From the NCBI GenBank assembly GCA_964372395.1, contig CAYJQV010000004.1, positions 2,984-66,983 on the forward strand: a stretch of DNA of 64,000 nucleotides. The letters are read 5' to 3'. Of the stretch, positions 2,874-51,769 are shown one piece after another. Position numbers and translations under genes: made by a program. The DNA is from an uncultured Planctomycetia bacterium (GTDB taxonomy: Bacteria; Omnitrophota; Gorgyraeia; 1-14-0-20-64-10). The first letter of the stretch is position 1, and every line of letters begins with the position of its first letter. The notes beneath the pieces were generated by a model, which had not been told where the DNA came from, did not search any database, and saw only the letters and a program-made list of their open reading frames with translations.

Positions 2874-2887
2874 AAGGGAGCCCTCTC

Positions 2888-15515: not shown

Positions 15516-15905
15516 TTACAGAGAACCGGTCAGAGGAACCCGGGGTGCACGGCGGCGCTCTTCGGGGATGCCGGGAGGAGAGATGAGCTGGCGGACGAGG
15601 GTTCGGTCCGATTCCTCCATTCGCGTGAAGGAGATCCCCAGGCGGAACCGTCCGGCGTAGGGCAGGCAGTGAACCACGCGGCCGGTGATCTGCATGAGCC
15701 CCGGCGGGTGAGCGGGGAGGGGCAAGGCAGTGCGTGAGAATTCAAGCCGAACCAGCAGGCCCCACGGGAGAGAAACGTTGCTCAGGAGGCCGAGCCCATA
15801 CTCGCTGATGTCGTAGAGGAAGGCCTCGATCGGCCCGTCCGGCTTGTACACCGTCTGCGACCGCTCCGGATCTTCATGGACCTCCACGTTTACAGGGATC
15901 GGCAT
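15516..15905 (-). CDS. PilZ domain protein (c-di-GMP receptor-like)
   Basis: ~130 aa with PilZ-like motifs. Confidence 0.5.
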   Translation of the reverse strand: MPIPVNVEVHEDPERSQTVYKPDGPIEAFLYDISEYGLGLLSNVSLPWGLLVRLEFSRTALPLPAHPPGLMQITGRVVHCLPYAGRFRLGISFTRMEESDRTLVRQLISPPGIPEERRRAPRVPLTGSL

Positions 15906-15951
15906 TGCTAGCAACTATTCTATCACCCACCGCCCAGAGGAGGCCGGTATA

Positions 15952-18900
15952 ATGGAGAGGGTTAAGGTCGCCATGCCGAACAAGACGCTGGAGGTTTTGC
16001 TCAAGGAGGGAAGGGCCTTCCCGCCGCCGGAAGCTTTTGCCCGCCGCGCGAACGTCCGGGATCCCGGCGTGTACGAACAGGCCGCCAGGGACCCATTGGC
16101 ATTCTGGGAATCGTTCGCCGGGGAGCTGCACTGGTTCAGCCGGTGGGGCAAGGTGCTGGAGTGGGAGCTGCCGGACGCCCGCTGGTTTGTCGGCGGCAAG
16201 ACCAACCTCTCCTATAACTGCCTGGACCGCCACCTGTCCGGCGCGCGCAGGGACAAGCCGGCGATCCTGTGGGAGGGAGAGCCCGGGGAGGAGCGGCGCC
16301 TCACCTACGCCCAGCTGCACCGGGAGGTCTGCCGGTTCGCGCACGCGCTCGAGCGGCTCGGGGTGAAGCGGGGTGATCGTGTGACGATCTACATGCCGAT
16401 GGTGCCGGAGCTGGCGATCGCCATGCTCGCCTGCGCGCGGATCGGGGCCCCGCACAGCGTGGTCTTCGGCGGGTTCAGCGCCGAGGCGCTGGGGGACCGG
16501 CTCCGTGATTCGCAGTCCAGGGTGCTGGTGACCGCCGATGGGGGCTGGAGGCGGGGCTCTGTGGTGCCGCTCAAGAGGAGCGCCGACGAGGCGCTGGAGG
16601 CGGCCCCCTCCGTGGAGAAGGTGGTCGTCTTCCGGCGGTTGAAGGAATCGGGCTGTCCGATGAAGCCGGGCCGGGATCTCTGGTGGGAGGAGCTCGTGGC
16701 CGGGCAGCCGGACCAGCACGAGGCGGCTCGGCTCGATTCGGAGCAGATGCTGTACCTCCTGTACACGAGCGGGACCACCGGCAAGCCCAAGGGGATCGTC
16801 CACACCACCGGCGGCTACATGGTCGGCTGCTACGCGACCACGAGGTGGATCTTCGACCTGAAGGAGGAGGACACCTTCTGGTGCGTTCCCCCAGGAACCA
16901 AAGTGATCGCGAACCCAGAGCCCAAATCCATTGAGCAGATTAAGGTCGGAGATCGAGTTCTAGCACACGACGGGAGGTACTCTGAAGTCCGTCGACTTTA
17001 CAGGCGGCACTACGAAGGCGACCTCGTAAGGATCCAGACTCTGTATTGCGGCGAACCGTTCCTGCTGACCCCCAACCACTCTGTGCTCTGCGGACGAAAG
17101 GGGAGAACAGGGATTCTCTGGAAACCGGCAGGTGAACTGACGGAAAAGGATTTCGTCTTGCTTCCGAAACTCCGAGAAAACCAAGACCGGGAATTCATAA
17201 AGATATCCGCCGTCGTCAGGGGATGTGTGGTCGTCGGCGAGAGAGTCCGGCGCCCGAAGATCCGCTTTTCCCTGCCTGAGAAAATACCCCTTGATCCTCG
17301 TTTTATGCGTTTAGCAGGCTACTATCTTGCAGGGGGAAGCGTGGCGTCCAAAGGCCGCGCACTGCAGTTCTCCTTTAATCGGCGCGAGGAGCCTTATGCC
17401 GATGACGTCCTATCTCTTTTGGAGGAAATCTTCGGAATCAGCGGAAAGAAGGCATGGATCAATAACCTCTGCGAGATCCGGGTGGGCTCTGTACTGCTCG
17501 CCGAGTTCATGCCTGCCCTCTTTGGAAGCAAAGCCCCTAACAAGCGAATTCCGGACGAGTGGCTCTGTTTTCCCGATGGAAAGCTGGCCGAGCTGCTGAA
17601 GGGTCTTTGGCGGGGAGATGGCAGTGCGGATCGGGACTCGTTCAGGTTCCACACCACATCCGAAGTTCTCGCCCACCAGGTCAGGATGATTCTAACCAAG
17701 ATGGGCTTGCTGAGCTCGATCGGTTGTCGCAAGAGGGAGCGCATTGGGCCCAGCCGGATCGGCGGCAGAAGCATCATCGCCCGGCACGATTGCTATTGCA
17801 TAAAAGTGGGCGGAAGGGCGCTCCAAAAGCTCTCTGAAATCCTCGGGGTGCGCCATCCTTTTATCGGGAAGCGCATCTCGGTTCGGCGACGCGGCATGCG
17901 CTCGAAAAATTACCTGTGGTTGCCCATCCGGTCCGTCAAGCGGGAGTATTACGAGGGCGAAGTCTACAACATAGAGACCGACAAGCATTCCTATGTCCTG
18001 AGTAACATGGCGGTCCATAACTGCACGGCTGACATCGGTTGGGTGACAGGCCATTCGTACGTGGTTTACGGACCTCTGCTCAACGGGGCGACCACCCTCA
18101 TGTACGAGGGGGCGCCGGATCATCCGGGCAAGGACCGCTTCTGGCAGATCGTGGAGAAGTACCGGGTCAGCGTCTTCTACACCGCCCCCACGGCGATCCG
18201 GGCCTTCATCAAATGGGGAGAGGAGCTGCCCGGCGGTCATGACCTCACGAGCCTGCGGCTGCTCGGCTCGGTGGGGGAGCCGATCAACCCCGAGGCCTGG
18301 ATCTGGTACCACCGGGTGGTGGGCCACGGCCGCTGTCCCGTGGTGGATACCTGGTGGCAGACCGAGACCGGACAGATCCTGATCTCGCCCCTTCCCGGGC
18401 TGACGAAGCTCAAGCCCGGCTCGGCGACCCTTCCGTTCCCGGGGATCGAGGCGGACGTGGTGGACGACAAGGGGAATCGCTCCGATTCCGGCTACCTGGT
18501 GATCCGATCCCCCTGGCCCGGGATGCTGCGGGGAATCTACGGGGATCCGGAGCGCTACCGGGCCCAGTACTGGAGCCGGTTCCCCGGCCTTTACTTCACC
18601 GGCGATGGGGCGAAGCGGGATCCGGACGGCTGCTTCTGGCTGCTCGGCCGGGTGGACGACGTCCTGAAGGTGAGCGGCCACCGGCTTTCCACCATGGAGA
18701 TCGAGTCGGCGCTGGTGGACCATCCCTCGGTCGCCGAGGCGGCGGTGGTGGCCAAGCCGCATGAGATCAAGGAGAACGCCGTGGTCGCCTTCGTGACGCT
18801 CAAGTCCAGCGTCCGGCCCGCCGATGGTTTGACGGAGGAGCTCAAGGCGCACGTGGTGCGGAAGATCGGTGCCATCGCGCGGCCGGATGAGGTGATCCTG

Positions 18901-19050
18901 ACGGCCGAGCTGCCGAAGACCCGATCTGGCAAGATCATGCGGCGCCTGCTGCGCGACATCGCGGAGGGGAAGGCTCTTGGAGACACCACCACGCTGGCGG
19001 ACGCGGGCGTCGTGCAGGCGCTGAAGGAGAAGTATGGCGAGTCTGAGTGA
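15952..19050 (+). CDS. acs: acetyl-CoA synthetase (AMP-forming), interrupted by an in-frame intein (extein 1: 15952-16881; extein 2: 18022-19050)
   Basis: AGGAGG RBS with ATG at 15952. YTSGTTGKPKG P-loop. The conserved FW|CTADIGWVTGHSY motif is split by a 380-aa insert. The C-terminus is typical Acs (...KTRSGKIMRRLLR...). Confidence 0.9.
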   Translation: MERVKVAMPNKTLEVLLKEGRAFPPPEAFARRANVRDPGVYEQAARDPLAFWESFAGELHWFSRWGKVLEWELPDARWFVGGKTNLSYNCLDRHLSGARRDKPAILWEGEPGEERRLTYAQLHREVCRFAHALERLGVKRGDRVTIYMPMVPELAIAMLACARIGAPHSVVFGGFSAEALGDRLRDSQSRVLVTADGGWRRGSVVPLKRSADEALEAAPSVEKVVVFRRLKESGCPMKPGRDLWWEELVAGQPDQHEAARLDSEQMLYLLYTSGTTGKPKGIVHTTGGYMVGCYATTRWIFDLKEEDTFWCVPPGTKVIANPEPKSIEQIKVGDRVLAHDGRYSEVRRLYRRHYEGDLVRIQTLYCGEPFLLTPNHSVLCGRKGRTGILWKPAGELTEKDFVLLPKLRENQDREFIKISAVVRGCVVVGERVRRPKIRFSLPEKIPLDPRFMRLAGYYLAGGSVASKGRALQFSFNRREEPYADDVLSLLEEIFGISGKKAWINNLCEIRVGSVLLAEFMPALFGSKAPNKRIPDEWLCFPDGKLAELLKGLWRGDGSADRDSFRFHTTSEVLAHQVRMILTKMGLLSSIGCRKRERIGPSRIGGRSIIARHDCYCIKVGGRALQKLSEILGVRHPFIGKRISVRRRGMRSKNYLWLPIRSVKREYYEGEVYNIETDKHSYVLSNMAVHNCTADIGWVTGHSYVVYGPLLNGATTLMYEGAPDHPGKDRFWQIVEKYRVSVFYTAPTAIRAFIKWGEELPGGHDLTSLRLLGSVGEPINPEAWIWYHRVVGHGRCPVVDTWWQTETGQILISPLPGLTKLKPGSATLPFPGIEADVVDDKGNRSDSGYLVIRSPWPGMLRGIYGDPERYRAQYWSRFPGLYFTGDGAKRDPDGCFWLLGRVDDVLKVSGHRLSTMEIESALVDHPSVAEAAVVAKPHEIKENAVVAFVTLKSSVRPADGLTEELKAHVVRKIGAIARPDEVILTAELPKTRSGKIMRRLLRDIAEGKALGDTTTLADAGVVQALKEKYGESE
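16882..18021 (+). mobile_element. full-size intein with LAGLIDADG homing-endonuclease domain inside acs
   Basis: Starts with Cys (CVPPGTKVIANPEP...). Block B TPNH. LAGLIDADG-like motifs LAGYYLAGGSV and LLKGLWRGDGS. Ends ...MAVHN followed by the +1 Cys of the extein. Confidence 0.85.
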
Positions 19051-36586: not shown

Positions 36587-37384
36587 ATGCGCCGGATTTC
36601 CGTCCTCGCGATCTCAGCCCTTCTTTATTCTTCCCTTTTCCCGCGCCCGGTTTTCCCCCTGAACCTGGATCGTCTGGACGCCGAGGAGCTCCGCTTGAGG
36701 GAATCGATCATGAGGCGGCTCGTTCCGCTCGCCGACCGGCGCAGGCAAGAGGGAACCGCACCCCTCATCACCTTCGAGGAGCTGTACGCGGGCCTGAGCC
36801 AGCGGGAGATCGAGTTCCTCGAGCAGTTCCGCCGGGTGGACCCGGCGGAGGTGGGCGGCTCCAGCCGGCGGCTTCCGCCGCCAGCGGCCGACAGCGAATT
36901 CGTCCGGCTGGACCGGCAGGTGGTCCTGCGCGAGGGCAAGCCGATCCGGCTCGATGCACAGTATCTGCCGCGGACAGCGCACGAGGCGTACCGCCGGATG
37001 ATGGCGGCCATGGAGGAGGATCTCGGCAAGCGGCTGCTGGTCGAGTCCGGATACCGCTCCCCGGCCTATCAGCTCTACCTCTTCCTCTACTACATGCCAA
37101 AGCACGGCCACTCCGTCCGGGAGACCAACCGCCACGTCGCCCTGCCCGGGTGCAGCGAGCATGGGAGCCCCGATTTTCAGGCGATCGACTTCATCACCCC
37201 GGAGGGGGTGAACGGCGAGGATCGGCCGGAGGAGTTCGAGGAGCTGCAGGAGTACGGCTGGCTGCGGGCTCGCGCGCGGGAGTTCGGCTTTCGCCTGTCG
37301 TACCCTCGCGGCGGTCCCTCCGCATTCGAGCCATGGCACTGGCATTGGGAGAAAGGGAACTTTTCGGAAAGGGACTTTCCATGA
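36587..37384 (+). CDS. peptidase M15 family (VanY-like D-Ala-D-Ala / L,D-carboxypeptidase), secreted
   Basis: Signal peptide MRRISVLAISALLYSSLF. ...SGYRSPAYQ... and ...HGSPDFQAIDF... are Zn-ligand motifs. Confidence 0.7.
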   Translation: MRRISVLAISALLYSSLFPRPVFPLNLDRLDAEELRLRESIMRRLVPLADRRRQEGTAPLITFEELYAGLSQREIEFLEQFRRVDPAEVGGSSRRLPPPAADSEFVRLDRQVVLREGKPIRLDAQYLPRTAHEAYRRMMAAMEEDLGKRLLVESGYRSPAYQLYLFLYYMPKHGHSVRETNRHVALPGCSEHGSPDFQAIDFITPEGVNGEDRPEEFEELQEYGWLRARAREFGFRLSYPRGGPSAFEPWHWHWEKGNFSERDFP

Positions 37385-38943
37385 AGCCGGTGTCTCCCAA
37401 GGCGGAGCGCCCCAGCCTTTCCTGGAAGGGGCTGTACAAGGAGGCGGCGCTCTACCAAGCGGCGCTGAAGCTTTACACCAAGGCCCTCTTCCAGTGGAGG
37501 AAAGCCCTCTCCACCTCCTCCGATGGGAAGACGCTCTACGATTTTGCCCGGACGGGTCTGGAGCGCTTGGATTCGGTTCATGGAAGGCTCGAGTCTGCCA
37601 CGTTCCACTTCCGCGCGGGGACCGCCCGCACCCACAACTTCAACGGAAAGATCCGAACGCTGTACATCTATCCATGGGAGGAAAAGGTGGTGGATCTGCT
37701 GCTCTACCGGCTGATGAATGCGAAATTCCACGCCCTTTTTTCACCCTGCTCTTACGCCTACCGGTGGCGCGGGTACGGCGTAGACCTCTGCCAGAGGCGC
37801 CTCGCGTCCCAGATCGGACGGAAGGGCAAGCCCCTCTATCTCTTCAAGCGGGACATTGCCAGGTTCTTCGATTCCATCGACCATTCGATTTTGCTGGAGC
37901 GGCTCTCCGAATACGTCCCGCAGGAGGATTACCTCTGGCAGCTTCTCCGGCAGCGGGTGGAGTTTCCCTATGAAGCAGGCGGGCGGATCGTACGGGCGGC
38001 GCAGGGGGTTCCTTTCGGGACCCCGGTGGCCTGTTTCTTTGCGAACCTGTATCTGACGTGGCTGGACCGCCAGCTGGACCAGCGAAAGGGCCTGGCGTAC
38101 TTCCGCTATGCAGATGACCTGATCGGGATCGGATCCGATCCCGATGTGGTGCTGGCTGCGGCCGACTGCTGCGACCGGATGCTGGAGGAGCTGAAACTCT
38201 CCGTCAAGCCGAGCCAGTTTCTGCAGGGAGTTGTCTGCGCCACCCCGACGGAGCGCCCGCCCTTTGCCTGGATCACAAGGTTCAGGCACCTGGGACTGGA
38301 ATTTCGGTGCGATGGCCGCACAGGCCTTTCGAGGGACAAGAGGCGGAAGATCTGCAACCTTTTCCAGTATGCCTTCCGCCGCAAGGCAGGGCGGTTTCGC
38401 AAGATTTCCTCTCCGCAAAAGCGGGCCGAGCTGGCGGTGGAGATCGCCCGAAGGGTTCTGGACCAGCAGCTCCGGCACGTCAGCATCATCGACTACTACC
38501 TCAGGCACGTCCGGGATGAAGAGCAACTGCGGCAGATCGACCGGTGGCTGGCGGAGGAGGTTCTCTCCATCTCTCTGGGCGGGCACCGAAGGGGACATTT
38601 TCGTCGGATCTCCTTCCGGCGGTTGCGCGAGATGGGCCTGCCCTGCCTACGGCACCGCAGCCGCCTGATCCGCCACGGCCAGATCAAAACCTCCTTCTTC
38701 CGTTGGAAGGAGTATCAGCAACAGAAGGCAAAGCGAGGGGGATGGCGCCAGGCTGGAGGTCGGAAAAACCCCAGCCTTTTCCCCGTGCCTGGAAGCATCC
38801 GCCGCGAGCACCCCGTGGGAGAGGGAGGCGGACTGTCGACAGGCGGTATTGAAGACAGATTCGCTGAAGCGAATCTGTCGTTGTCCTGCCATCCCCCTTC
38901 GCTTCCATCCAAGAGAGAGGAGCCGACCGATGGGGCTTCTTGA
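37381..38943 (+). CDS. reverse transcriptase (RNA-directed DNA polymerase), retron / group-II-intron-like lineage, free-standing
   Basis: ATGA overlap with the M15 stop. RT motifs 1/2 (RTLYIYPWEEKVVDLLLYRLMN; SYAYRWRGYG), motif A (LFKRDIARFFDSIDHSILL), motif B (QGVPFGTPVACFFANLYL), motif C FRYADDLIGIG (YADD at 38107-38118), motifs 6/7 (LKLSVKPSQF...FRHLGLEF). No En/HNH or maturase-intron context. The C-terminal ~100 aa is low-complexity and may be non-coding. Confidence 0.85.
   Translation: MKPVSPKAERPSLSWKGLYKEAALYQAALKLYTKALFQWRKALSTSSDGKTLYDFARTGLERLDSVHGRLESATFHFRAGTARTHNFNGKIRTLYIYPWEEKVVDLLLYRLMNAKFHALFSPCSYAYRWRGYGVDLCQRRLASQIGRKGKPLYLFKRDIARFFDSIDHSILLERLSEYVPQEDYLWQLLRQRVEFPYEAGGRIVRAAQGVPFGTPVACFFANLYLTWLDRQLDQRKGLAYFRYADDLIGIGSDPDVVLAAADCCDRMLEELKLSVKPSQFLQGVVCATPTERPPFAWITRFRHLGLEFRCDGRTGLSRDKRRKICNLFQYAFRRKAGRFRKISSPQKRAELAVEIARRVLDQQLRHVSIIDYYLRHVRDEEQLRQIDRWLAEEVLSISLGGHRRGHFRRISFRRLREMGLPCLRHRSRLIRHGQIKTSFFRWKEYQQQKAKRGGWRQAGGRKNPSLFPVPGSIRREHPVGEGGGLSTGGIEDRFAEANLSLSCHPPSLPSKREEPTDGAS
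38854..38879 (+). ncRNA. perfect 11-bp stem / 4-nt loop hairpin (GACAGATTCGC-TGAA-GCGAATCTGTC), candidate structured RNA element at the RT / Zn-ribbon junction
   Basis: Seen directly. The lower-GC, non-coding-looking stretch 38700-38930 surrounds it. Confidence 0.35.
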
Positions 38944-41529: not shown

Positions 41530-42546
41530 ATGAGTAGATCCGCTTCGAGAATCTTCCCGGGGTTCGTTCTTGCGCTGCTCATCGGGCTTTGCCCGGAGGG
41601 CTTCCCGAACGTTCCGGTGCGTTCCTTCCGGCTGACGTATGAGGTGAGCCTGCCCGCCATCCCGAACGAGGCGGGTGAGCTGAAGATCTGGGTTCCGCTG
41701 AGCCGGTCCGACGAGATTCAGAGGATCCGGTGGCGGGTGATCCAGGTCCCCTATGCCTACCGGCTGACGAAAGACCCGCAGTACGGCAACGAGATCCTCT
41801 TCCTGGATCTGAAGCGGCCGCTCCCGCCGGCCCTGGATCTGGCGATCCATTACGACGCGGAGGTCCGGGAGGTTCGGCCGGCGATGGAGAGGGCGGAGCC
41901 GTTCATCCCCGACGAGGTCCGCCGCCGGCTGGCCCTTCATCTCGAATCGAATCAGCTCATGGTGGTGGACGACGGGGTTCGGGAGCTGGCCCGGTCGGTG
42001 ACGGCCCATGCGGGCACACCGGCGGAGAAGGCCAGGGCGATCTTCCAGTACGTCATCGAGCGGATGCGCTACGAGAAGGAGACGCCCGGCTGGGGTCAGG
42101 GCGATACCCTGCGGGCCTGCGCGGTCGGGGCGGGCAACTGCACCGATTTCCATTCCCTCTTCATCTCGCTGGCGCGGGCCTCCGGCATCCCGGCCCGGTT
42201 TGCGATCGGCCTGCCGGTGCCGCAGAAGCCGGAGGGGGAGATCCCGGGGTATCACTGCTGGGCGGAGTTCTTCCTGCCGGGTGCCGGCTGGGTTCCGGTG
42301 GATGCGTCAGAGGCCTGGAAGGACCCGCAGCGCACGGATTACTTCTTCGGCACGTACGACCCGAATCGGCTGACGGTGAGTCTCGGGCGGGACGTCCAGC
42401 TCGAGCCGAAGCCGGCCTCCAGCGATTTCATCAACATCTTCTTCTTCCCTTATGTGGAGTTGGACGGGATGCCGTTGGAGAAGGGGCGGTTTCAGACGAG
42501 GTTTCGGTTCCGCGATTTGAACAGCAGAGGAGGCGTTGATGCGTAG
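41530..42546 (+). CDS. transglutaminase-like cysteine protease domain protein (secreted)
   Basis: Signal peptide. ...GAGNCTDFHSLF...H...D... is the Cys-His-Asp core. Confidence 0.7.
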   Translation: MSRSASRIFPGFVLALLIGLCPEGFPNVPVRSFRLTYEVSLPAIPNEAGELKIWVPLSRSDEIQRIRWRVIQVPYAYRLTKDPQYGNEILFLDLKRPLPPALDLAIHYDAEVREVRPAMERAEPFIPDEVRRRLALHLESNQLMVVDDGVRELARSVTAHAGTPAEKARAIFQYVIERMRYEKETPGWGQGDTLRACAVGAGNCTDFHSLFISLARASGIPARFAIGLPVPQKPEGEIPGYHCWAEFFLPGAGWVPVDASEAWKDPQRTDYFFGTYDPNRLTVSLGRDVQLEPKPASSDFINIFFFPYVELDGMPLEKGRFQTRFRFRDLNSRGGVDA

Positions 42547-42763
42547 AGCGCGTTGGATGACTGCGGCGGTGGTTTCGAGCGTCGCGGGGCTTGCCCTGAT
42601 CGGTTGCCAGAGGCAGCAGCCGGCGGGCAAGGGCAAGGAGCACGGCGGCAAGGAGCATGCGGGCGCGGCGCTGAAGGAGCACGGCGGCAAGGAGCACGGC
42701 GGGGCCGCGGTGGCCAAGGAGCACGGCGGCAAGGAGCACGGCGGGGCGACCGTCACGAATTAG
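42536..42763 (+). CDS. small lipoprotein with six KEHGG(A) repeats
   Basis: Lipobox LIGC. Repeats KEHGGKEHAG / KEHGGKEHGG x3. Confidence 0.55.
   Translation: MMRRARWMTAAVVSSVAGLALIGCQRQQPAGKGKEHGGKEHAGAALKEHGGKEHGGAAVAKEHGGKEHGGATVTN
42625..42750. repeat. tandem ~15-bp repeats (aaggagcacggcggc) encoding the KEHGG units
   Basis: Direct inspection of the sequence. Confidence 0.6.
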
Positions 42764-42778
42764 GAAGGAGGAATCAAG

Positions 42779-43189
42779 GTGACGAAAGGCATGAGCACGG
42801 TCCTCTTTGCCGCGTTCGCGATCCTGTCGTTGGCGGGCTCCTCTTTGGGCGCCGAGCCGACGGCGGAGGAGCTGCGGCAGACGATCCGGGATTACATCCA
42901 GTCGCAGGAGCAGCAGACAGGGGCGTTTATCATCCCTGATCCCAAGCAGAAGGGGCTGCTGCGCACCCTGTCCCTCATCCGGGTCCATGAGCGGGTCGGC
43001 AAAACAGGCGATTACTACTACTCCTGCACCGACATGAAGGATCTGAAGAGCCAGGACGAGCTGGACCTGGATTTCGACGTCTCCGACACGGGCGGGAAAC
43101 TTGCGGTCGTTGCGGTGAGGATCCACAAGGACAACGGGAACCCCCGCTACACGTACGACTCGAACGACAACCTCATCCCGCTGGAGTAG
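42779..43189 (+). CDS. secreted hypothetical protein
   Basis: Signal peptide MSTVLFAAFAILSLAGSSLGA. No recognisable domain. Confidence 0.45.
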   Translation: MTKGMSTVLFAAFAILSLAGSSLGAEPTAEELRQTIRDYIQSQEQQTGAFIIPDPKQKGLLRTLSLIRVHERVGKTGDYYYSCTDMKDLKSQDELDLDFDVSDTGGKLAVVAVRIHKDNGNPRYTYDSNDNLIPLE

Positions 43190-43334
43190 TCGGGCAAGTC
43201 CCCCAGGCATCGGCGGACAGCAGCCCCTGATTCTCCAGGTCTGCCTGACCGAGGCCGAGATCCATCGGGATTTCATCCTTGCCCTGAAGCGCCGGAGGCT
43301 CACGGAGCGGTTCTTCTACTGGTTCCCCGCCTCC

Positions 43335-44168
43335 GTGCGGGCTTGGTTGCGGCTTTGCAGTTCCAGGCGGTATAAGAATGCGGCCCGCTCGCGGCAGCTT
43401 TGCGAGCGGGCCGCTTCTTTTCTGGTCCCGCGCCTGCGGGCCGGCCCCGCGCAGTGGGTCGCCCTCGGCGTGGGGCAGGGGGAGAAGGAGATGCTTTTCC
43501 TGCGGCCTCTGGCGCCTCGGCAGAGGATCGAGTACGTACCGTGGGACACCAGTCAGACTCTCCTCGAAATGGCCGGCCGGCGCGCTCTGGGCTGCGGGCT
43601 TTCCGTTTGGGCCATGAAGGCGGACCTGGAGCAGGAGTCGCACTGGAAAGCCGTTCCGGCCGCTCCGCGTGGGAGCCGGAGGGTCCTCTCGGTTTTCGGG
43701 AACAGCCTGGGGGCCGTGAGGCTGGATCGGTTGCTCACCCGCGCCAGCCAGCTCCTTCACCGCGGAGACTGGTTCCTGGTGGACGGGGAGCTCCATGCCG
43801 GAGAGGCAACGCTCGCCGGCTACGATCATCCGGTCAACCGCGCCTTTGCCTTTGCGCCGCTTGAGGCGGCCGGATTCTCGCGGGCCGACGGGGAGCTTCG
43901 CTTCACGCTGCGCGCCCCGAGCGGCGGCTCGCCGCTGGGGCGGCTGGAGAAGCAGTTTGACCTGAAGAGACCGGTCGCCCTGCGCCTGGGCGGGGAGATG
44001 CTCCGGTTCCGGAGGGGAGATCGGATCCGGATGAGTCCTTCCGACAAGTGCGACCTCGAGGCCATGACGGCGCGGCTCGGGCAGGACCGGCTGTTTCAAG
44101 TCGAGGAGCGGCTCCTCTCGTCGGATCGGAGGTTCGCCCTCTGGATCCTGCGCAGGAGCGGCCGGTGA
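43335..44168 (+). CDS. EgtD-like (Methyltransf_33) SAM-dependent methyltransferase, N-terminally short or disrupted
   Basis: ...WVALGVGQGEKEMLFL... (compare ELGSGTSEKT), ...RIEYVPWDTS... (compare FIPFDVD), ...LSVFGNSLGAV... (compare FLGSTIGN). The upstream in-frame region still encodes an EgtD-like N-terminus but has no canonical start codon. Confidence 0.45.
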   Translation: MRAWLRLCSSRRYKNAARSRQLCERAASFLVPRLRAGPAQWVALGVGQGEKEMLFLRPLAPRQRIEYVPWDTSQTLLEMAGRRALGCGLSVWAMKADLEQESHWKAVPAAPRGSRRVLSVFGNSLGAVRLDRLLTRASQLLHRGDWFLVDGELHAGEATLAGYDHPVNRAFAFAPLEAAGFSRADGELRFTLRAPSGGSPLGRLEKQFDLKRPVALRLGGEMLRFRRGDRIRMSPSDKCDLEAMTARLGQDRLFQVEERLLSSDRRFALWILRRSGR

Positions 44169-44836
44169 AGGAGACCGCGCAGGCCTACGACCGGCTGGCG
44201 GCCGTTTACGACGAGCGGTGGCGGCACTATCTGGACGAGACCTTGGACTGGGTCTCGAGGCACGTGGAGGCCCGCTGGCCGCTCCGCCTGCTGGACGTCG
44301 GGTGCGGCACCGGCGAGCTCATCCGGCGGCTCAAGACCCACATGCGGGAGACGTTCTTCGTCGGGCTGGACCCTTCCGCCGGGATGCTGGGCCGGGCGGA
44401 TCTGAAGTTCCCGGAGGGGGAAGGCCGCACGGCGCTGGTGCAGGCTACCGCTGACAGGATCCCTTTGAAGGACGGCTCCTTCGACTGGGTCGCCTGCGTC
44501 AACAGCCTGCACTGCTTCGCAGAACCCGAGCGGGCGACCATGGAGATGGCGCGCGTCTTGAGGCCGGAAGGGAAGCTCCTTCTCATTGACTGGAGCGGGG
44601 AGTCGTGGCTGTGCCGGCTGCTGGACGCCTGGTGCCGCCGGTTCGATCCGGCCCATGTCCGGATGTACCGGCCGGACGAGGCGAAGGAGATGCTGGAGCG
44701 GGCCGGGCTTTCCCTGCTGGCGATTGAGAACTTCCGGGTGGGCGGGCCGGCCGGCCTTCGCCTGTGGGAGATGATGTCGCTGACGGCGGTCAAGCCGGCC
44801 TCCGGGCTGCCCGCGTCAAGCGGGTTGGCCGCGTGA
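44165..44836 (+). CDS. class I SAM-dependent methyltransferase (Methyltransf_11/25-like)
   Basis: GTGA overlap with the upstream stop. [11 protein letters not shown] motif I. Confidence 0.7.
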
Positions 44837-44840
44837 CCTG

Positions 44841-44880
44841 TTCCCCCGGAGGTCAGACCCCCAGGGGGACAGGTCCCTTA
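44841..44880. repeat. degenerate copy D of the palindromic repeat (GGTCAGACCCCC-AGGGGGACAGGTCCC)
   Basis: Intergenic. Partial match to the GGGGTCAGACCC family. Confidence 0.4.
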
Positions 44881-44970
44881 TTTGTGGTAGCATGGGCGCT
44901 GGCGGCGGCGTGGCTGGCCCTCTTCGTCGCGGGCGGGCCGGACGCAGAGGCGGCAGGGACCTCGCCCAGG

Positions 44971-47109
44971 ATGAAACGAGACGCTCCACCCCACACCAAT
45001 CGGCTGATCCGGGAAAAATCCCCCTATCTCCTCCAGCACGCGGACAACCCTGTGGACTGGTACCCCTGGGGGGAGGAGGCCTTCGAGAAGGCCCGCCGGG
45101 AGGAGAAGCCGATCTTTCTCTCCATCGGCTACTCCACCTGTCACTGGTGCCACGTCATGGAGCGGGAATCATTCGAGGATCCGGAGGTGGCCTCCATCCT
45201 GAACGAGCATTTTGTCTCCATCAAGGTGGACCGGGAGGAGCGGCCGGACGTGGACAGCCTCTACATGCAGTCGGTCATCGAGATCACCGGGCAGGGGGGC
45301 TGGCCGCTGTCGGTCTTCCTGACGCCGGAGCTCAAGCCGTTCTACGGAGGGACCTACTTCCCGCCGGAGGACCGCTGGGGCCAGCCGGGCTTCAAGAGAC
45401 TTCTGCTCGGCCTGGCCGACGCCTGGAAGAAACAGCGGGACCAGATCCTCGACTCCAGCGAGCGGCTGGTCCGGCTGCTCCGGGAGGGGGAGGGATCGCT
45501 CGGTTCGGGTGAGCTTCTCCTTTCGGAAGAGGTCCTGCGCACCGCCTACCGGCTCTTCGAGGCCACCTTCGATGAGCGGTTCGGCGGCTTCGGCTCGGCG
45601 CCCAAGTTTCCGTCGGCCCACAACCTCTCGTTCCTGCTCCGGTATTGGAAGCGGTCCCGGCAGGAGCGCGCGCTCGAGATGGTGGAGGCGACCCTCGAGG
45701 CGATGGCGGCGGGCGGGATCTTCGATCAGCTCGGAGGCGGCTTCCACCGCTACTCCACCGACGCCCAGTGGCGGATCCCCCATTTTGAGAAGATGCTCTA
45801 CGACCAGGCGATCCTCTCCCGCGCCTATCTGGAGGCGCATCAGGCAGCGGGGAAGGAGGCGTACGGCGCGGTGGCCCGCCGGATCTTCGACTACGTCCTT
45901 CAGGATCTGACCGGGCCGGAAGGGGCCTTTTATTCAGCGGAGGACGCCGACAGCGAGGAACCCGCGACGGCGCCCTCGGCACCAAGTGCCAAGCCGGTAC
46001 CTGGTACCGAAAAGAAGGAAGGGGCCTTCTATCTCTGGACGGAGAAGGAGATCGAGGAGCTTCTGGGTCCTGAGCGGGCGAAGACTTTCAGGGCCGCCTA
46101 CGGCGTGACGCGCGGCGGCAATGCGCTGAGTGACCCCACAGGGGAGCTGCGCGGAAAGAACGTCCTGTACCTCGCCCGCCCTGCCGGAGAGATGCCGGAG
46201 CTGGCGCGGGAGAAGGAGATCCTCCTGGCGGCGCGCCTTCGCAGGCCGAGGCCGCACCGGGATGACAAGGTTCTGACCGACTGGAATGGCCTCATGATCT
46301 CCAGTCTCGCCTTCGGCTCGCGTGTCCTGGCTGAGCCGCGGTACCGGGAGGCGGCGGAAAGGGCGGCACAGTTCATCCTGGCCCGGCTGATCCGGGAGGA
46401 CGGCCGGCTCCTCCACCGCTGGCGGGATGGGGAGGCGGCCATCCTGGGGACCCTCGAGGATTACGCCTTCCTGATCCACGGCCTCGTGGATCTCTACGAG
46501 GCGACCTTCGAGGCGGTCTACCTCGCGCAGGCCAAGCGGCTGACCGGGGAGATGGTGCGCCTCTTCTGGGATGAATCTCAGGGCGGTTTCTTCCTCGCCG
46601 GCTCCGACGCGGAGCTGCTGCCGGTCCGCCAGAAGCGGTTCTCCGACGGGGCGATCCCCTCAGGGCACTCCATCGCGGTGCTCGATCTGGTCCGGGTGGG
46701 GCGGCTCACCATGCAGCGGGACTGGGAGGCAAGGGCGGAGCAGGTGCTGCGGTCTCTGCTCGAGAAATCGTCAGCGCCGGAATCGGCCCGGCACCCGGGT
46801 GCTTTCCCCCAGATCCTGGCCGCGCTCGATTTCCTGCTGGGCCCCTCGATGGAAATCGTGATCGCCGGAGCCCCGGAGGACCCGGCGACCGGAAAGATGA
46901 TCCGGGCGGTCTGGGAGAGATTCATCCCCAACCGGGTGGTCGTCTTCCATCCGCCCGGCCCGGCCGGCGAGGCGATCGAGAAGGTGGTCCCCTTCGTGGA
47001 AGGCCAAGTTGCCCAGGAGGGCAAGCCGACCGCCTACGTCTGCCGGAACTACGCCTGCGACCTGCCGGTGACCAGCGTGGAGAAGCTCCATGAGCAGCTC
47101 GAGCGATAG
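44971..47109 (+). CDS. thioredoxin-domain protein of the DUF255/YyaL family (N-terminal Trx-like domain + six-hairpin glycosidase-like domain)
   Basis: ...[29 protein letters not shown]...STCHWCHVM... is the hallmark of this family. An alternative GTG at 44884 would add a signal-peptide-like extension. Confidence 0.8.
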
Positions 47110-49678
47110 GGACGCTCGGACCGTTCCGGCTTCCGGCGTCCATCTTCCCAGAATGTTCCGCTGGCAAGCGGAGGAGATCTTCTTTTTCCTGGACCCTGAA
47201 TCCCCCCACTGGATCGCCACCGATGCGCGGGCGGCCAGGATCATCGGCTGGCTGGAGGAGGGCTTGACCGGCGAGCCGCTCCTTCATCGCTACGCCCAGG
47301 CCGAGGGGCTTGCGGTGGAGAAGGCCTGGCTGCACCTGCACGACTTCACAGGGGCGCTGTTGCGCTGCGGGTTCGCTCAAACCCAACCGGCCCAGCCGAA
47401 GCCTTACCTCGGCCGGGCCGCTTACGCCGCTGCCGGCGCCTTGCGGGAGCTCTGGCTCCACACGAACAACATCTGCAACCTGAGCTGCACCCATTGCCTG
47501 GTGGACTCCGCCCCATGGGTGAAGGACTGGGGCCTTCCGACGCCGCAGATCCCCGAGCTGGTGGACGAGGCGGCGGCCCTCGGTGCGGACCGGTTCTATC
47601 TGACCGGCGGGGAGCCGTTCATGAGGAAGGATCTGGGCCGGATCCTCAGCCACATCACCGAGCGCCGGAAGGCGGAGGCGATCGTGCTCACCAACGCGAT
47701 GCTGCTCAAGGGAGAGCGCGGCGGGGAGCTGAAACGCCTGCCGAGGGAGCGTCTGCGGTTTCAGGTGAGTCTGGATGGGGCGACTCCTGCAACCAACGAC
47801 CGGATCCGGGGCGTCGGCTCCTTCGAGCGGACGCTGGAAGGCCTTCGCTGGCTCAACGCCCACGGCTTTGAAACCTCTCTGACCACCGTGGTGACCCGAG
47901 CCAACCTGCAGGAGCTGCCGGGGCTGGCCCGCCTCTGCCGGCAGGCGGGCGGCCGGGTGCAGCACCTCATGTGGGCTCATCGCCGGGGCCGGATCCTCTC
48001 CGGGACGGCAGCGGACGATTTCCCAACGGCGGAGGAGCTGGCCGCGGCGGTCCGCCGGGTCCGGCGCGTCGCGGAAGAGGAGGGTGTCGCGCTGGACAAC
48101 TGGGAGACGGTCAAGCAGCGGGTCAACGGCCCCCCCGGGGTCAAGTACGATCTGGGCAACGCCTGCTGGGATTCCCTCTGCATCTATTCCGACGGGACGG
48201 TGTACCCCTCCGCGGCGCTGGCCAATTTTCCGCCGCTCGCGCTGGGCTCCCTGCAAGGATCCGGCCGGGAACCGGGCCGCAAGCCCGACCGGCTCGCCGA
48301 GATCTGGCAGAATTCACCGGTCGCCCGGACGTTCCGCCGGATGAGCCTGGTGGACAAGCAAACCCTGGCGGAGGATCCTTTCCGGTTCCTCACCGGAGGG
48401 GGGGACATCGAGCACTCCTTCTGGTTCAACCTCAACGGCGAATCCCCCGCGGCTCCCATCGCCCCGGAGCGGCTCCGCCGGATCCTGGCGGGGCCGGATC
48501 CCTACCATCCGCTCTACGTCGCGCTCATGAAGGATGCGATGGCCGAGATCGCCCGCCGCCAGCGCGATTCGATCAACCGCCGCTCCGGCTACGATGTGCC
48601 GCGGATCCTCCATGCCATGGGGCAGGGGGCGATCCACTGCGCCACGGAGGATCTGGCGGTGACCGAGGAGGTGGATGTCCGGACGCTCCATTCCAACTGC
48701 GTCCTGGCATTCGACGTGGACAAGCCCCGGCGGCTGGTGCGCGAGTACTACGGAAAGGCCGCTTTAAAACCGGTGGCGGAGCTCTGCTGTCCGACGAAGT
48801 TCGATCCATCCCTCGTCGGGCACATCCCCCAGGAGGTGGTGGATCGGTTCTACGGCTGCGGCTCGCCGGTCACCCTGGCGGGGCTCCGGCCGGGCGAGAC
48901 GCTGGTCGACCTGGGCTCGGGCGCCGGGATTGACTGCTTCATCGCGGCCAAGCTCGCGGGGCCGACCGGCAAAGCGATCGGCATCGATATGACCGATGAG
49001 ATGCTCAAGGTGGCCAATGCGAATCGGCCTGTGGTCGCCGCCAACCTCGGCTACGACGTCGTCGAGTTCCGCAGCGGGTACCTCGAGCAGGTGCCGGTGG
49101 AATCCAAGTTTGCGGATGTGGTCACCTCCAACTGTGTGGTCAACCTCTCGCCGGACAAGCCGAAGGTCTTCGCCGAGATTTGGAGGATCCTGAAGGACAA
49201 CGGCCGGATGGTGGTGGCCGACATCGTCTCCGACCGGCCGGTGCCGGCCCGCCTGAAGGTCAATCCCCAGCTCTGGGGCGAGTGCACGGTGGGCGCCCTC
49301 ACCGAGGCGGAATTCCTGGCTGGGTTGGAGGAGGCCGGCTTCTACGGCCTGTCTGTCTTGAAGAAGAGCTACTGGAAGGCGATCGAGGGCTACGACTTTT
49401 ATTCGGTGACGGTGCTGGGGTTCAAGTTCGAGAAGACGTCCGGCTGCCGCTTCATCGGTCAGCGGGCGATCTACCTCGGCCCCTTCAAGTCGGCCATGGA
49501 CGAGGAAGGGCATCTCTTCCCCCGCAACGAGCCGGTGGAGGTCTGCACCGACACCGCCGCCAAGCTGGCCAAGCCCCCATACGCCGGCAGATTCATCGTC
49601 ATTGCGAGCCCCGGCCCTTCCGCCGTTGCGGGCCCCGAAGGGGCGAAGCAATCTGCGTGCGGCCCCGGCTGCTGCTAA
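47090..49678 (+). CDS. fusion protein: radical SAM / SPASM-like domain (ArsS-like) + arsenite S-adenosylmethionine methyltransferase (ArsM)
   Basis: CNLSCTHC (CxxxCxxC) radical SAM cluster. ...[14 protein letters not shown]... auxiliary-cluster-like Cys. C-terminal half has ...ELCCPTKF...[52 protein letters not shown]...SNCVVNL...WGECTVGA... with all ArsM catalytic cysteines. An alternative start ATG lies at 47153. Confidence 0.75.
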
Positions 49679-49767: not shown

Positions 49768-50106
49768 ATGGCACGCAACCGATCTTGGATGCTCGTTGTG
49801 ATCTTGACGGGGATGGTGGCACTCGCCTCGGCGGGGGTCTCCTCTGCGGAGGAGGCGACCGCCTGGAACAAGCTGCAGCGGGGCGCGGTCAACACGACCA
49901 CCGGATGGCTGGAGATGATGGTTCAGCCGGTCGAGGGAGCGAAGGCCGAGTCCCCCTTCATGGGGGTGGTCACCGGCTTTGGGAAGGGGATCCTGCTGGG
50001 ACTGCAGCGGACCGGCCTGGGACTGGCGGACAGCCTCTCCTTTCCGGTCGGGCCGTACGATCGGCCCGCCATGGAGCCGGAGACCCTCTTCGGCCCGGTC
50101 AAGTAA
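49768..50106 (+). CDS. exosortase system-associated protein, TIGR04073 family
   Basis: 112 aa, signal peptide. ...GAVNTTTGWLEMM... is the family core. Confidence 0.6.
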   Translation: MARNRSWMLVVILTGMVALASAGVSSAEEATAWNKLQRGAVNTTTGWLEMMVQPVEGAKAESPFMGVVTGFGKGILLGLQRTGLGLADSLSFPVGPYDRPAMEPETLFGPVK

Positions 50107-50139
50107 GCTTAGTCGGCGTATCCGTCGTTTCAGCGGCAC

Positions 50140-50178
50140 GGGGTCAGACCCTCAAGGGGTCTGACCCCGTTTTTTCGG
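50140..50178 (+). terminator. Rho-independent terminator formed by palindromic repeat copy E (GGGGTCAGACCC-tcaa-GGGGTCTGACCCC + GTTTTTTCGG)
   Basis: Perfect 12-bp stem, 4-nt loop and a U-run. Confidence 0.8.
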
Positions 50179-50191
50179 TAGGCCAGCCAGC

Positions 50192-51433
50192 GTGAAGGTT
50201 TCGGTCATCCTGCCGGTGCTGGACGAAGCGGAGAACCTGCGCCGGCTGCTCCCCCAGCTTGTCGGCCGCGCCGAGGAGGTATGGGTGGCTGACGGCGGCT
50301 CCACCGACTCCACGGCTCGAGATGCCGAGGCCGCAGGCGCCCGAGTGATCCGATCCCCGCGCGGCCGCGGAGCGCAGATGAATGCGGCAGCGGCGCAGGC
50401 GACCGGGGATCTCCTGTGGTTCCTCCACGCCGATTCCGTCGTGCCGGCCGACTGGCGGCACCAGATCACGCAAGCCCTCCGGGACCCTGCGATTCTCGGC
50501 GGAGCGTTCCGTGTCCGGATTGACGCCCCCGGCCTGCCTTACCGCCTGCTGGATGCGTGGGGCCTGCTGCGGCTCAGATTCCAGCCGGGCTGTTTCTACG
50601 GGGATCAGGGGATCTTCGTCCGGCGGGAGGCGTTTGAGCGTCTCGGCGGCTTCTCCGACTGGCCGGCGCTGGAGGACCTGGACTTCTCATTTCGCTTGAA
50701 TCGGCTCAGGAGGACGCGCCTGCTCAACGCAAAAATCCTCACCTCCGCCCGGCGCTGGAAGCAGGAAGGTTGGTGGCGCACGGTGATCCAGCACAGCCGG
50801 GCGGCCCTCTCGTATCGGCCATTGACCTTGGGGATCCTGGCCAAGGCCCCGATCCCAGGCCAGGTCAAGACCCGCTTGTGCCCGCCGCTCACGCCGGAGC
50901 AGGCGGCGAATCTGGCCGGCCGGCTCCTCGCGGAAACGGTCTCAACCGCCCGGGAGCTTCCCCGGGTGCGCGTGACGGTGGTGGTGGCGCCGGATGAAGG
51001 GATCCCGCATGTCCGGGAGCTTCTCCCCAGAGCCATTCCGATGATTCCGCAGGGGGACGGTGATTTCGGCAGGAGGATGCTTCGGTTCTTTGAGTCGGCC
51101 TTCCAGGAGGGATCCCGCGGAGCCGTCATCCTGGGCGCGGATCACCCCGGCCTGCCCAAGGAGTACCTGGCGCAGGCGATCGGTTTCCTTCGGAAGGGAA
51201 GGGACGAGGTGGTTCTCGGTCCGACGGAGGACGGCGGCTACTACCTGATCGGGATGGCCCGGCTTCACCCGGAGCTGTTCGAGGGGATCCCCTGGAGCAC
51301 ATCGGAGGCGTTCCGGCTGACCTGCGACCGGGCGAAGCGCCTCGGCTTGCCGGTTGCCGTGCTGCCGTCGTGGTTCGACCTCGACCGCCCGGAGGACCTG
51401 GCCCGGTTTGCGCGGCATACCGCCGTCGGGTAG
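50192..51433 (+). CDS. fused family-2 glycosyltransferase (TIGR04283-like) / DUF2064 (TIGR04282-like) protein
   Basis: GTG start. N-terminal VSVILPVLDEAENL...ADGGSTD GT2 motifs. The C-terminal half resembles DUF2064. Confidence 0.6.
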   Translation: MKVSVILPVLDEAENLRRLLPQLVGRAEEVWVADGGSTDSTARDAEAAGARVIRSPRGRGAQMNAAAAQATGDLLWFLHADSVVPADWRHQITQALRDPAILGGAFRVRIDAPGLPYRLLDAWGLLRLRFQPGCFYGDQGIFVRREAFERLGGFSDWPALEDLDFSFRLNRLRRTRLLNAKILTSARRWKQEGWWRTVIQHSRAALSYRPLTLGILAKAPIPGQVKTRLCPPLTPEQAANLAGRLLAETVSTARELPRVRVTVVVAPDEGIPHVRELLPRAIPMIPQGDGDFGRRMLRFFESAFQEGSRGAVILGADHPGLPKEYLAQAIGFLRKGRDEVVLGPTEDGGYYLIGMARLHPELFEGIPWSTSEAFRLTCDRAKRLGLPVAVLPSWFDLDRPEDLARFARHTAVG

Positions 51434-51442
51434 AATGGCCTT

Positions 51443-51769
51443 ATGGGGATGCCGGACAAGCCGCCGCGGGCGAGGGACCCGAGGATCGCAGCGGTGGTCA
51501 ACCAGAACGGGTGCACCGGGTGCGAGGCGTGTATCACCGTCTGCCCGGTGGACTGCATCGAGACCGTGCCGGGAGCGGAGAGGCCGGGGCTGTTCAGGCT
51601 CGTGGAGATCGACCTGGACCGCTGCATCGGCTGCGGGCTCTGCCCCAAGATCTGCCCGTGGGACACGATCACGATGGAGCCGTACCCGCAGGCCAAGGAG
51701 ATCGCCCCGCTGGTCACCTTTCGCAGCGTGGTCCCCGGCCATCGGGCGGGGGTGAGCTCGCCGGTCTGA
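51443..51769 (+). CDS. 2x[4Fe-4S] ferredoxin
   Basis: CTGCEACITVCP and CIGCGLCPKICP cluster motifs. Confidence 0.8.
   Translation: MGMPDKPPRARDPRIAAVVNQNGCTGCEACITVCPVDCIETVPGAERPGLFRLVEIDLDRCIGCGLCPKICPWDTITMEPYPQAKEIAPLVTFRSVVPGHRAGVSSPV

Follow-up and report, generated by a model that had tools for sequence, protein, structure and literature searches.

The window analysed here is a 64-kb stretch (64,000 nucleotides, forward strand) of contig CAYJQV010000004.1 in assembly GCA_964372395.1, deposited as an uncultured Planctomycetia bacterium and placed by GTDB within the Omnitrophota; its GC content lies at 64-69% and its sequence matches contig CAMTXW010000070.1 of the metagenome-assembled genome (MAG) GCA_947085785.1. 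Our subject is a run of four plus-strand genes that ends in a fusion of a radical S-adenosylmethionine (SAM) domain to an As(III) methyltransferase (ArsM): an EgtD-like (Methyltransf_33) SAM methyltransferase (43209-44168, start uncertain), a class I SAM methyltransferase (44165-44836), a DUF255/Thioredox_DsbH protein (44884-47109, alternative start GTG 44764) and the fusion itself, hereafter rSAM-ArsM (47090-49678). A first-pass annotation had read the interval 43119-49678 as a methyltransferase-rich operon for a trimethylated onium compound or an ergothioneine-like metabolite. The four consecutive open reading frames (ORFs) do exist on the plus strand and Pfam backs each of the domain calls. 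Two of the junctions then reported are exact: the GTG at 44165-44167 overlaps the TGA at 44166-44168, and the ATG at 47090 opens a 20-nt overlap with the DUF255 gene, whose TAG stop occupies 47107-47109. The boundary between the class I methyltransferase and DUF255, which had also been described as overlapping or abutting, is either a 47-nt gap (from the deposited start, GTG 44884) or a 73-nt overlap (from GTG 44764). Position 43119 is not a start codon: the reading frame opens there, behind an in-frame TGA, while the preceding gene still runs on to its stop at 43189. Moreover, the reported interval excludes the gene most consistently linked to rSAM-ArsM, a GT2-DUF2064 fusion lying 0.5 kb downstream on the same strand (50192-51433). 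It is rSAM-ArsM together with GT2-DUF2064 that forms the sole broadly conserved functional unit of the region.

The rSAM-ArsM fusion and its family

The last gene of the run encodes, as the first-pass annotation had proposed, a genuine bifunctional protein: within its 862 aa Pfam recognises both Radical_SAM (PF04055, 80.3 bits) and Methyltransf_31 (100.8 bits), and the catalytic cysteines of both halves are present in all 78 full-length homologs. A full ArsM occupies residues ~545-862, with the equivalents of the arsenic-binding cysteines C44, C72, C174 and C224 of CmArsM (Cys566/567, YGC590G, SNC682V and GEC732, respectively) and a C-terminal CGPGCC. Compared with PDB chains by phmmer, this half matches 5evj with an E-value of 1.6e-40 over residues 2-300 of the C-terminal half, and Foldseek searches with an AlphaFold2 model of the fusion retrieved the ArsM structures 5evj, 6cx6, 4fr0 and 8xt7 at E ~1e-18 and target template-modelling scores of 0.60-0.66. 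The best-scoring family of the fusion is the general ArsM model NF008823, with 223.8 bits against a cut-off of 263 for a fused query that matched profile positions 56-234 of 272. With its four-cysteine As(III) site the C-terminal half is a complete ArsM, and SAM-dependent methylation of As(III) is accordingly its expected activity.

The N-terminal half belongs to the radical-SAM enzymes, its architecture being that of the SuiB/SkfB/PqqE lineage and not that of ArsS. A PqqD/RRE-like domain (~residues 17-100) precedes the radical-SAM core (residues 118-300), which bears the CX3CX2C motif at residues 129-136 (nt 47474-47497; Cys129, Cys133 and Cys136), and a degenerate SPASM/twitch region follows (~residues 355-415). 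Its matches among PDB sequences were BlsE, SkfB, PqqE and MoaA, those found by Foldseek were SkfB and SuiB, which are maturases of ribosomally synthesized and post-translationally modified peptides (RiPPs; 419-490 aligned columns), and also PqqE. In the structural model, whose overall pLDDT (predicted local distance difference test) is 72.5, residues 17-100 fold as three strands and three helices at a pLDDT of 88-93. Pfam cut-offs are passed by other family members for PqqD (PF05402, 26.4 bits against 23.4, in P0032) and for SPASM (26.1 bits, in P0019); on the window protein itself SPASM reaches 17.9 bits, below its cut-off of 21.5, and its isolated N-terminal 117 residues and residues 301-540 returned nothing above threshold from NCBIfam and Pfam. 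The seven-cysteine SPASM motif for two auxiliary clusters is largely absent, the only cysteines conserved outside the catalytic sets being the nearly invariant Cys364, Cys517 and Cys537.

The stretch 'HSNCVL' around the last of these (window 48689-48706, fusion residues 534-539) resembles the third-cysteine motif of ArsM, 'SNCVVNL' (residues 680-686), and Cys537 is found in 78 of the 78 homologs; together with Cys364 and Cys517 it could constitute a candidate second arsenic-binding site in the radical-SAM half.

The family to which the fusion belongs is large and uniform. The 120 best matches of a database search were all full-length fusions, 54-90% identical to the query, and 213 of the 862 positions are at least 97% conserved in the 78 full-length homologs, across phyla. 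Scanning one genome per species, i.e. ~185,000 species-representative genomes, yielded 262 relatives, of which the best 80 all come from MAGs labelled as Omnitrophota/'Planctomycetia', Acidobacteriota (mostly Thermoanaerobaculia), Gemmatimonadota, Elusimicrobiota or Nitrospirota. NCBI names the protein just 'methyltransferase domain-containing protein', and no paper on the fusion or on its cluster turned up in our literature search, which combined arsenic, radical-SAM and fusion or cluster-gene terms. We regard it as a new variation on the ArsM plus radical-SAM chemistry.

Neighbours of the fusion across genomes

Window proteins and clusters of de novo ORFs were compared across the best 80 of the 262 relatives, all of them species-level genomes; 50 of these loci (numbered here with the prefix L where they must be told apart) retain at least 5 kb of upstream flank and 37 at least 5 kb on both sides. 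The commonest neighbour is DUF2064 (42 of the 80 loci, almost always on the same strand and with a median gap of 92 bp), followed by a PHO4/PiT transporter (39 loci, same strand, median gap 41 bp), an FAD pyridine-nucleotide disulfide oxidoreductase (29), a VTT/DedA protein (28), GT2 (23) and DUF547 (13). At least one gene of this core accessory set was found at 30 of the 37 loci with both flanks, and the order of the partners varies among the Omnitrophota-like, Acidobacteriota, Gemmatimonadota, Elusimicrobiota and Nitrospirota genomes. Less frequent are a GT-C-like membrane transferase and DUF255 (8 loci each), an LMW-phosphatase-type ArsC (6), and ArsR and GH1 (3 each).

In the window the counterpart of the most conserved partner is the GT2-DUF2064 gene, whose product passes both curated cut-offs, TIGR04283 with 220.8 bits (182) and TIGR04282 with 189.4 bits (134). 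NCBI calls these families 'arsenosugar biosynthesis glycosyltransferases', their JGI names being 'rSAM/selenodomain-associated transferases 2/1'. Since the neighbourhoods of the fusion hold TIGR04282/TIGR04283 transferases, PiT/PHO4, ArsR and ArsC, organoarsenical biosynthesis is a reasonable reading of its cluster. To this extent the arsenic-linked biosynthesis proposed in the first-pass annotation stands; what falls is the four-gene unit to which it had been assigned.

Two side observations concern these partners. The PHO4/PiT gene directly downstream of rSAM-ArsM at the 39 loci (among L004-L081), which has no counterpart in the window, suggests a dedicated arsenate/phosphate uptake tied to the enzyme. 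On the other hand, GT2-DUF2064 has at least 1781 homologs, and one of them (L092, 860-10395) clusters with an FAD disulfide reductase, VTT, DUF547 and a gene of the fatty-acid-hydroxylase family; as the 8 kb around it hold neither a radical-SAM nor an ArsM gene, the accessory set can exist without the arsenic enzymes, and the 'arsenosugar' naming is therefore questioned.

The four genes reported together are, as a set, far less widespread. Co-conservation in related genomes, on which the first-pass annotation had staked its operon, largely fails: the class I methyltransferase was found at 3 of the 80 loci and the EgtD-like gene at 2 (L002 and L007 only), both of them among the 50 loci whose upstream flank reaches 5 kb. 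The order EgtD-like/methyltransferase/DUF255/fusion is held in one lineage, consisting of the window, L002 and L007, and in L007 4-nt overlaps connect the first three genes. Because the order persists in these three genomes and because of those short overlaps, co-expression of the four genes is likely in this lineage, and this part of the operon claim survives. The argument from tight packing does not. According to the deposited gene calls, 27 consecutive genes lie on the plus strand over 22.6 kb, and 11 of the 26 junctions among them overlap, including pairs of plainly unrelated members (amino-acid permease/PCMT, MFS/NYN and MazE/PIN). Overlap and co-direction are thus the background state of this genome, and therefore the four genes are not singled out by their packing.

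The slot upstream of the fusion is occupied by diverse genes in its closest clade, where the fusions are 62-65% identical. It holds an FAD reductase plus VTT in L004, L005 and L008 (with DUF547 as well in L004), DUF255 alone in L003, and the EgtD-like gene, the methyltransferase and DUF255 in L007. A larger cluster is found in L031, with the order TGase-sm2-DUF255-ECF sigma-anti-sigma-GT-C-GT2-DUF2064-fusion-VTT-FAD reductase-DUF547-GH1-PiT, in which TGase and sm2 denote the transglutaminase-like and small secreted proteins described below.

The EgtD-like and class I methyltransferase pair

The EgtD-like protein matches PF10017 with 51.8 bits (cut-off 23) over profile positions 12-303 of 304, and the PDB chains of EgtD match a profile of its clade with E-values of 1e-16 to 1e-18. 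It had been taken for an EgtD-type enzyme forming histidine betaine. Against TIGR03438, however, it scores 41.8 bits where the cut-off is 290.9, and the positions contacting histidine differ, as detailed in the last section; there is no sign of a trimethylated onium product or of one like ergothioneine, and no EgtB-, EgtC-, EgtE- or EanB-like gene was present among the scanned window ORFs. The clade is small, with 65 matches that are 30-57% identical, except for three short fragments of close relatives. In seven independent contexts of its members, an OpuA-type ABC transporter follows the gene in four, and in five the gene is divergently paired with an operon of a tiny ORF, MbnB/TglH (DUF692) and a partner. 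None of the seven contains arsenic genes or DUF255, and a tblastn search of them for the class I methyltransferase gave no real match.

The divergent arrangement merits a mention of its own. In L083, L086, L088, L089 and L090 the tiny ORF encodes 30-66 aa, the DUF692 protein is of the MbnB/TglH/ChrH kind and the partner has ~250-300 aa. It has the look of a hitherto undescribed association of a Methyltransf_33 enzyme with a RiPP-like operon of the MNIO type, and an OpuA-type ABC transporter often follows the EgtD-like gene.

The start of the EgtD-like gene is unusual. Aligned with 12 homologs, its conserved N-terminus begins with 'PLILQVCLTE', near 43221-43230, where there is no ATG, GTG or TTG; the first canonical start is the GTG at 43335, and the non-canonical candidates are ATC 43209, CTG 43227 and ATT 43230. 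The copy in L002 likewise lacks a canonical start for the conserved N-terminus. Because the N-terminal 88 codons (43227-43490) differ between the window and L002 by 11 synonymous and only 4 nonsynonymous changes, this stretch is probably translated, from the ATT, the CTG or the ATC. The same ratio led us to reject the idea of a pseudogene, which the missing canonical start and an internal hairpin had raised. That hairpin (43380-43414, plus strand, inside the EgtD-like ORF) has a 15-bp stem with 12 G-C pairs and then a U-rich tail; window and L002 differ in it by a compensatory change of a G-C to a C-G pair, both substitutions being synonymous. The structure may act within the gene, as a terminator or attenuator, or else end transcription of the sm2 operon upstream.

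The second enzyme of the pair, of 223 aa, is UbiE/Methyltransf_11-like (Methyltransf_11, 80.2 bits); its best NCBIfam match is the DVU_1556 family at 73.5 bits, with a cut-off of 155, and it differs between window and L002 by 21 synonymous and 23 nonsynonymous changes. At fusion loci it travels with the EgtD-like gene. Given that sm2 directly precedes DUF255 in L020, that TGase, sm2 and DUF255 are consecutive in L031, and that the window, L002 and L007 share the order sm2-EgtD-like-methyltransferase-DUF255, the pair looks like a lineage-specific insertion between sm2 and DUF255.

Flanking genes and other features of the window

The DUF255 protein matches PF03190 over its full length (266 bits, cut-off 27). 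It begins with a hydrophobic anchor or signal, carries a CHWC (CxxC) thioredoxin motif and ends in an (alpha/alpha)6-like region. A hydrophobic N-terminus is also seen in five of six inspected homologs near fusions, the one in L007 being less clear. In L002, L003 and L007 the gene adjoins or overlaps the fusion gene; in L031, L055 and L058 it opens larger clusters at their 5' end. It is an accessory of the arsenic cluster that recurs without being obligatory. Upstream, on the same strand, lie a transglutaminase-like lipoprotein with a lipobox (TGase, 41530-42546), a 74-aa lipoprotein with (KEHGG)n repeats (42539-42763) and sm2, a conserved secreted protein of 136 aa with a signal peptide (42779-43189). 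The sm2 gene occurs at 8 of the 80 fusion loci and TGase at 6, and in L020 sm2 and DUF255 overlap. TGase, sm2 and most of the fusion-adjacent DUF255 copies are predicted from their N-terminal sequences to form an extracytoplasmic set.

The predicted 74-aa lipoprotein is peculiar in itself, combining a LIGC lipobox with His-rich (KEHGG)n repeats whose DNA periods are 15 and 42. The KEHGG motif recurs as a separate ORF in L007 (5738-5908) and fused to the N-termini of the sm2 homologs in L031, L050 and L020, and the protein looks like a candidate periplasmic metal- or metalloid-binding element.

Downstream of the fusion, sm3 (49768-50106, plus strand) encodes a small predicted secreted protein of 112 aa, preceded by a strong Shine-Dalgarno sequence, GGAGG, and with a signal-like N-terminus; it has no Pfam match, and its only homolog among the 80 loci is in L002, the nearest relative. 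Between sm3 and GT2-DUF2064 the terminator scan found an intrinsic-terminator-like hairpin (50138-50177, plus strand) with a 15-pair stem and a T6 tail, kept in the 90%-identical L002, where one stem pair has gone from C-G to T-A by compensatory substitution. GT2-DUF2064 is followed by a 108-aa ferredoxin of the 2x[4Fe-4S] type (51443-51769, plus strand; Fer4 families of Pfam in the deposited gene table). This gene occupies the same place in L002, L003, L005 and L006 and belongs also to a lineage synteny with GreA-MFS-NYN; the ferredoxin could supply the radical-SAM domain with electrons.

Rfam, scanned over the entire window at its gathering thresholds for a riboswitch or other RNA element, gave no match. 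Elsewhere on the plus strand of the window, an intein with a LAGLIDADG homing-endonuclease domain splits an acetyl-CoA synthetase gene (15817-19050), an RVT_1 reverse-transcriptase ORF (37150-38943), with no group II intron match in Rfam, lies between a VanY-like gene and an amino-acid permease, and HemD (uroporphyrinogen-III synthase) and HemE (uroporphyrinogen decarboxylase) domains share a single ORF (2762-4819).

Interpretation and alternatives

Taken together, an organoarsenical module is supported and a four-gene operon for an onium compound is not. Our preferred explanation, to which we attach somewhat better than an even chance, is a mosaic: an arsenic module made of rSAM-ArsM and GT2-DUF2064, an optional DUF255 and an unrelated insertion of the EgtD-like/methyltransferase pair, all within a compact co-directional stretch. 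In such a module the ArsM half would methylate As(III) with SAM, and the radical-SAM half, by parallel with the separate enzymes ArsS and ArsL, might reductively cleave a second SAM and put a carbon substituent on the methylated arsenic, the physical fusion passing the toxic trivalent intermediate directly from one half to the other. The GT2 and the nucleotidyl-transferase-like DUF2064 domains could then turn the product into a sugar- or lipid-linked organoarsenical. DUF255, as a membrane-anchored or exported thioredoxin-fold protein, would probably provide thiol/disulfide redox chemistry outside the cytoplasm, its slot being taken in sister genomes by the pair of FAD disulfide reductase and VTT. 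As to the inserted pair, it most likely N-methylates an amino acid other than histidine, yielding a betaine for a purpose unrelated to arsenic. The small clade from which it comes is found elsewhere with betaine-type ABC transporters. Co-transcription of the pair with DUF255 and the fusion is probable in this lineage.

Several observations weigh against this explanation. With 57.6 bits where TIGR04167 demands 300, the radical-SAM half is not an ArsS, and an RRE/SPASM ancestry such as it has typifies enzymes that modify peptides. TIGR04282 and TIGR04283 owe their 'arsenosugar' names to gene association, and neither of the two GT2-DUF2064 homologs that we inspected (L091 and L092) is accompanied, within 8 kb, by a radical-SAM or ArsM gene. 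In the window itself the conserved terminator-like hairpin divides the fusion and sm3 from GT2-DUF2064, and tblastn of the 64-kb window with PiT, FAD reductase, VTT, DUF547, ArsR, ArsC, GH1 and the GT-C-like protein found none of them. Furthermore, the four-gene order is kept in three genomes whose fusions are only ~62% identical, with the 4-nt overlaps of L007; since it persists in genomes that have diverged so far, a local functional tie of the EgtD-like/methyltransferase pair to the arsenic genes is possible.

A narrower proposition, appreciably possible although short of an even chance, is that the fusion alone is a new synthase forming C-As bonds and makes an unknown organoarsenical in uncultured phyla.

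Plain detoxification comes next and we consider it unlikely. The radical-SAM domain would merely aid methylation or volatilisation, by delivering electrons or an extra methyl group, within an arsenic-resistance island, a picture to which the ArsR and ArsC-type genes at some fusion loci and the top score of the general ArsM model would be well suited. The commonest neighbours are, nonetheless, GT2, DUF2064 and GT-C-like transferases, VTT/DedA, GH1 and the PiT-type transporter and not the efflux pumps Acr3 or ArsB; both halves of the fusion are under strong constraint across phyla, as judged from its highly conserved positions; and characterised ArsM systems work without a radical-SAM partner.

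Somewhat less probable still is the single operon, in which the EgtD-like enzyme and the class I methyltransferase would act on the arsenical made by rSAM-ArsM, or on an amino-acid-type, arsinothricin-like arsenical, to give a permethylated onium or betaine. It draws on the common order, strand and overlapping junctions of the window, L002 and L007, on the purifying selection seen at the EgtD-like N-terminus and on the 193.9 bits that the ArsM half scores with the arsinothricin ArsM model, under its cut-off of 500. These points have to be set against the rarity of both methyltransferase genes at fusion loci, the other genes that sister genomes put in the slot, the seven contexts in which the EgtD-like clade never adjoins arsenic genes, the generic nature of overlaps in this genome and the lack of ergothioneine partner genes among the annotated window genes. 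The enzymes of the EgtD family, moreover, methylate the alpha-amino nitrogen of their substrate and are not known to methylate arsenic.

It is very unlikely that no functional relationship exists at all, i.e. that every adjacency, that of the fusion with GT2-DUF2064 included, stems from a compact genome and lineage synteny. The long co-directional run with its 11 overlapping junctions, the downstream ferredoxin-GreA-MFS-NYN run, which is plainly lineage synteny, and the terminator-like hairpin ahead of GT2-DUF2064 all agree with such a view; it does not account for the recurrence of DUF2064, GT2, PiT, FAD reductase and VTT beside the fusion, in varying order, across at least five phyla.

The boldest extension would make one pathway of the whole run from the EgtD-like gene to GT2-DUF2064, and we hold its chances to be slim. 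The radical-SAM domain of RRE/SPASM lineage would join ArsS and ArsL as a third enzyme forming C-As bonds, of independent evolutionary origin, and would attach an amino-acid-bearing or ribosyl carbon unit to methylated arsenic, and the EgtD-like protein would permethylate the amine to an undescribed arsenic-containing betaine.

Equally remote is a fusion that modifies a peptide or protein, possibly by installing or methylating arsenic on cysteines, instead of a small molecule: the PqqD/RRE-like domain, the SPASM matches in family members, the Foldseek similarity to SkfB and SuiB and the nearby small secreted proteins sm2 and sm3 would be in keeping with it, whereas clustering of the small ORFs of 20-69 aa that lie up to 1.5 kb from the fusion at the 80 loci, 1566 in all, gave only shadow-frame or single-clade clusters, the typical DUF2064-fusion-PiT layout leaves gaps of just 41-92 bp, the SPASM auxiliary-cluster cysteines are mostly gone and sm2 is found at a tenth of the loci. 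A RiPP precursor near the fusion was accordingly rejected as a candidate, there being no conserved small ORF in that range.

The proposed mosaic of an arsenic module, an optional DUF255 and an unrelated insertion carries a lesson for annotation, in that a striking "methyltransferase-rich operon" can be a mosaic and overlaps in a compact genome are a weak sign of shared function. If the radical-SAM half does form a C-As bond, the fusion would give bacteria of soil and groundwater a novel enzymatic path to organoarsenicals, and it would hint at a deliberate assimilation of arsenic rather than its detoxification. At about half of the fusion loci a PiT-type phosphate/arsenate transporter directly adjoins the gene, along with sugar and nucleotidyl transferases.

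Comparison with known systems

In the literature searched, radical-SAM routes to C-As bonds are two, ArsS for arsenosugars and ArsL for arsinothricin. The characterised example of ArsS is that of Synechocystis. A preprint (10.1101/2024.02.01.577332) cites ArsS as cleaving SAM at its adenosyl C-S bond, by radical chemistry, in arsenosugar biosynthesis. The system described here resembles ArsM plus ArsS in that a radical-SAM enzyme accompanies a SAM-dependent methyltransferase of As(III) and that TIGR04282/TIGR04283 transferases are nearby. It differs in that both activities reside in one polypeptide with an RRE-like N-terminal domain and a SPASM remnant, in that the sub-threshold alignment with the ArsS model covers the radical-SAM core alone (profile positions 7-151 of 303), and in that Pfam finds no DUF3641 C-terminal domain in the fusion.

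In the arsinothricin pathway of Burkholderia gladioli the C-As bond is made by the radical-SAM enzyme ArsL, whose product is methylated by an ArsM encoded next to it (PMC8552651; 10.1101/2024.02.01.577332). The likeness to this second system extends to the CX3CX2C radical-SAM motif and to the sub-threshold match of the ArsM half to the arsinothricin ArsM model. In contrast, the genes are fused here, there is no ArsQ permease, the neighbours are transferases instead of an ars resistance operon and the hosts belong to other phyla; no ArsL-named model appears among the best 25 NCBIfam matches of the N-terminal half, the 25th of which scores 45 bits, so that a match to ArsL, if there is one, would lie below this value.

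The closest structural matches of the N-terminal half are the RiPP maturases and related enzymes SuiB (5v1q), SkfB (6efn) and PqqE (6c8v), with which it shares an RRE-like winged helix, a radical-SAM core and a C-terminal extension of the SPASM type. The fusion stands apart from the RiPP maturases in having lost most of the auxiliary-cluster cysteine motifs, in being accompanied by no conserved precursor gene at the 80 loci and in its fusion to ArsM.

With EgtD (TIGR03438; 4pim, 7scf) the EgtD-like protein shares the Methyltransf_33 fold over its whole length, the glycine-rich SAM motif 'LGxGQGxK' and conserved Tyr and Ser positions that align with those which bind the carboxylate in EgtD. It departs from EgtD at the residues that recognise histidine: across the clade, Glu282 of the Mycobacterium smegmatis enzyme, which contacts the imidazole, aligns with Ser (profile alignment to 4uy5 and 7scf), and Asn166, the last residue of 'GSTIGN', has Ala or Gly as its counterpart ('GNTLGA'). 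Its surroundings differ as well, EgtB, EgtC, EgtE and EanB being absent from both the annotated window genes and the seven homolog contexts. Finally, the DUF255 protein is an evident relative of the YyaL/SPATA20 family (PF03190), as its full-length match and CHWC motif indicate, and it is distinguished from it by the N-terminal hydrophobic anchor or signal of most fusion-adjacent copies and by its place beside an arsenic cluster at 8 of the 80 loci.

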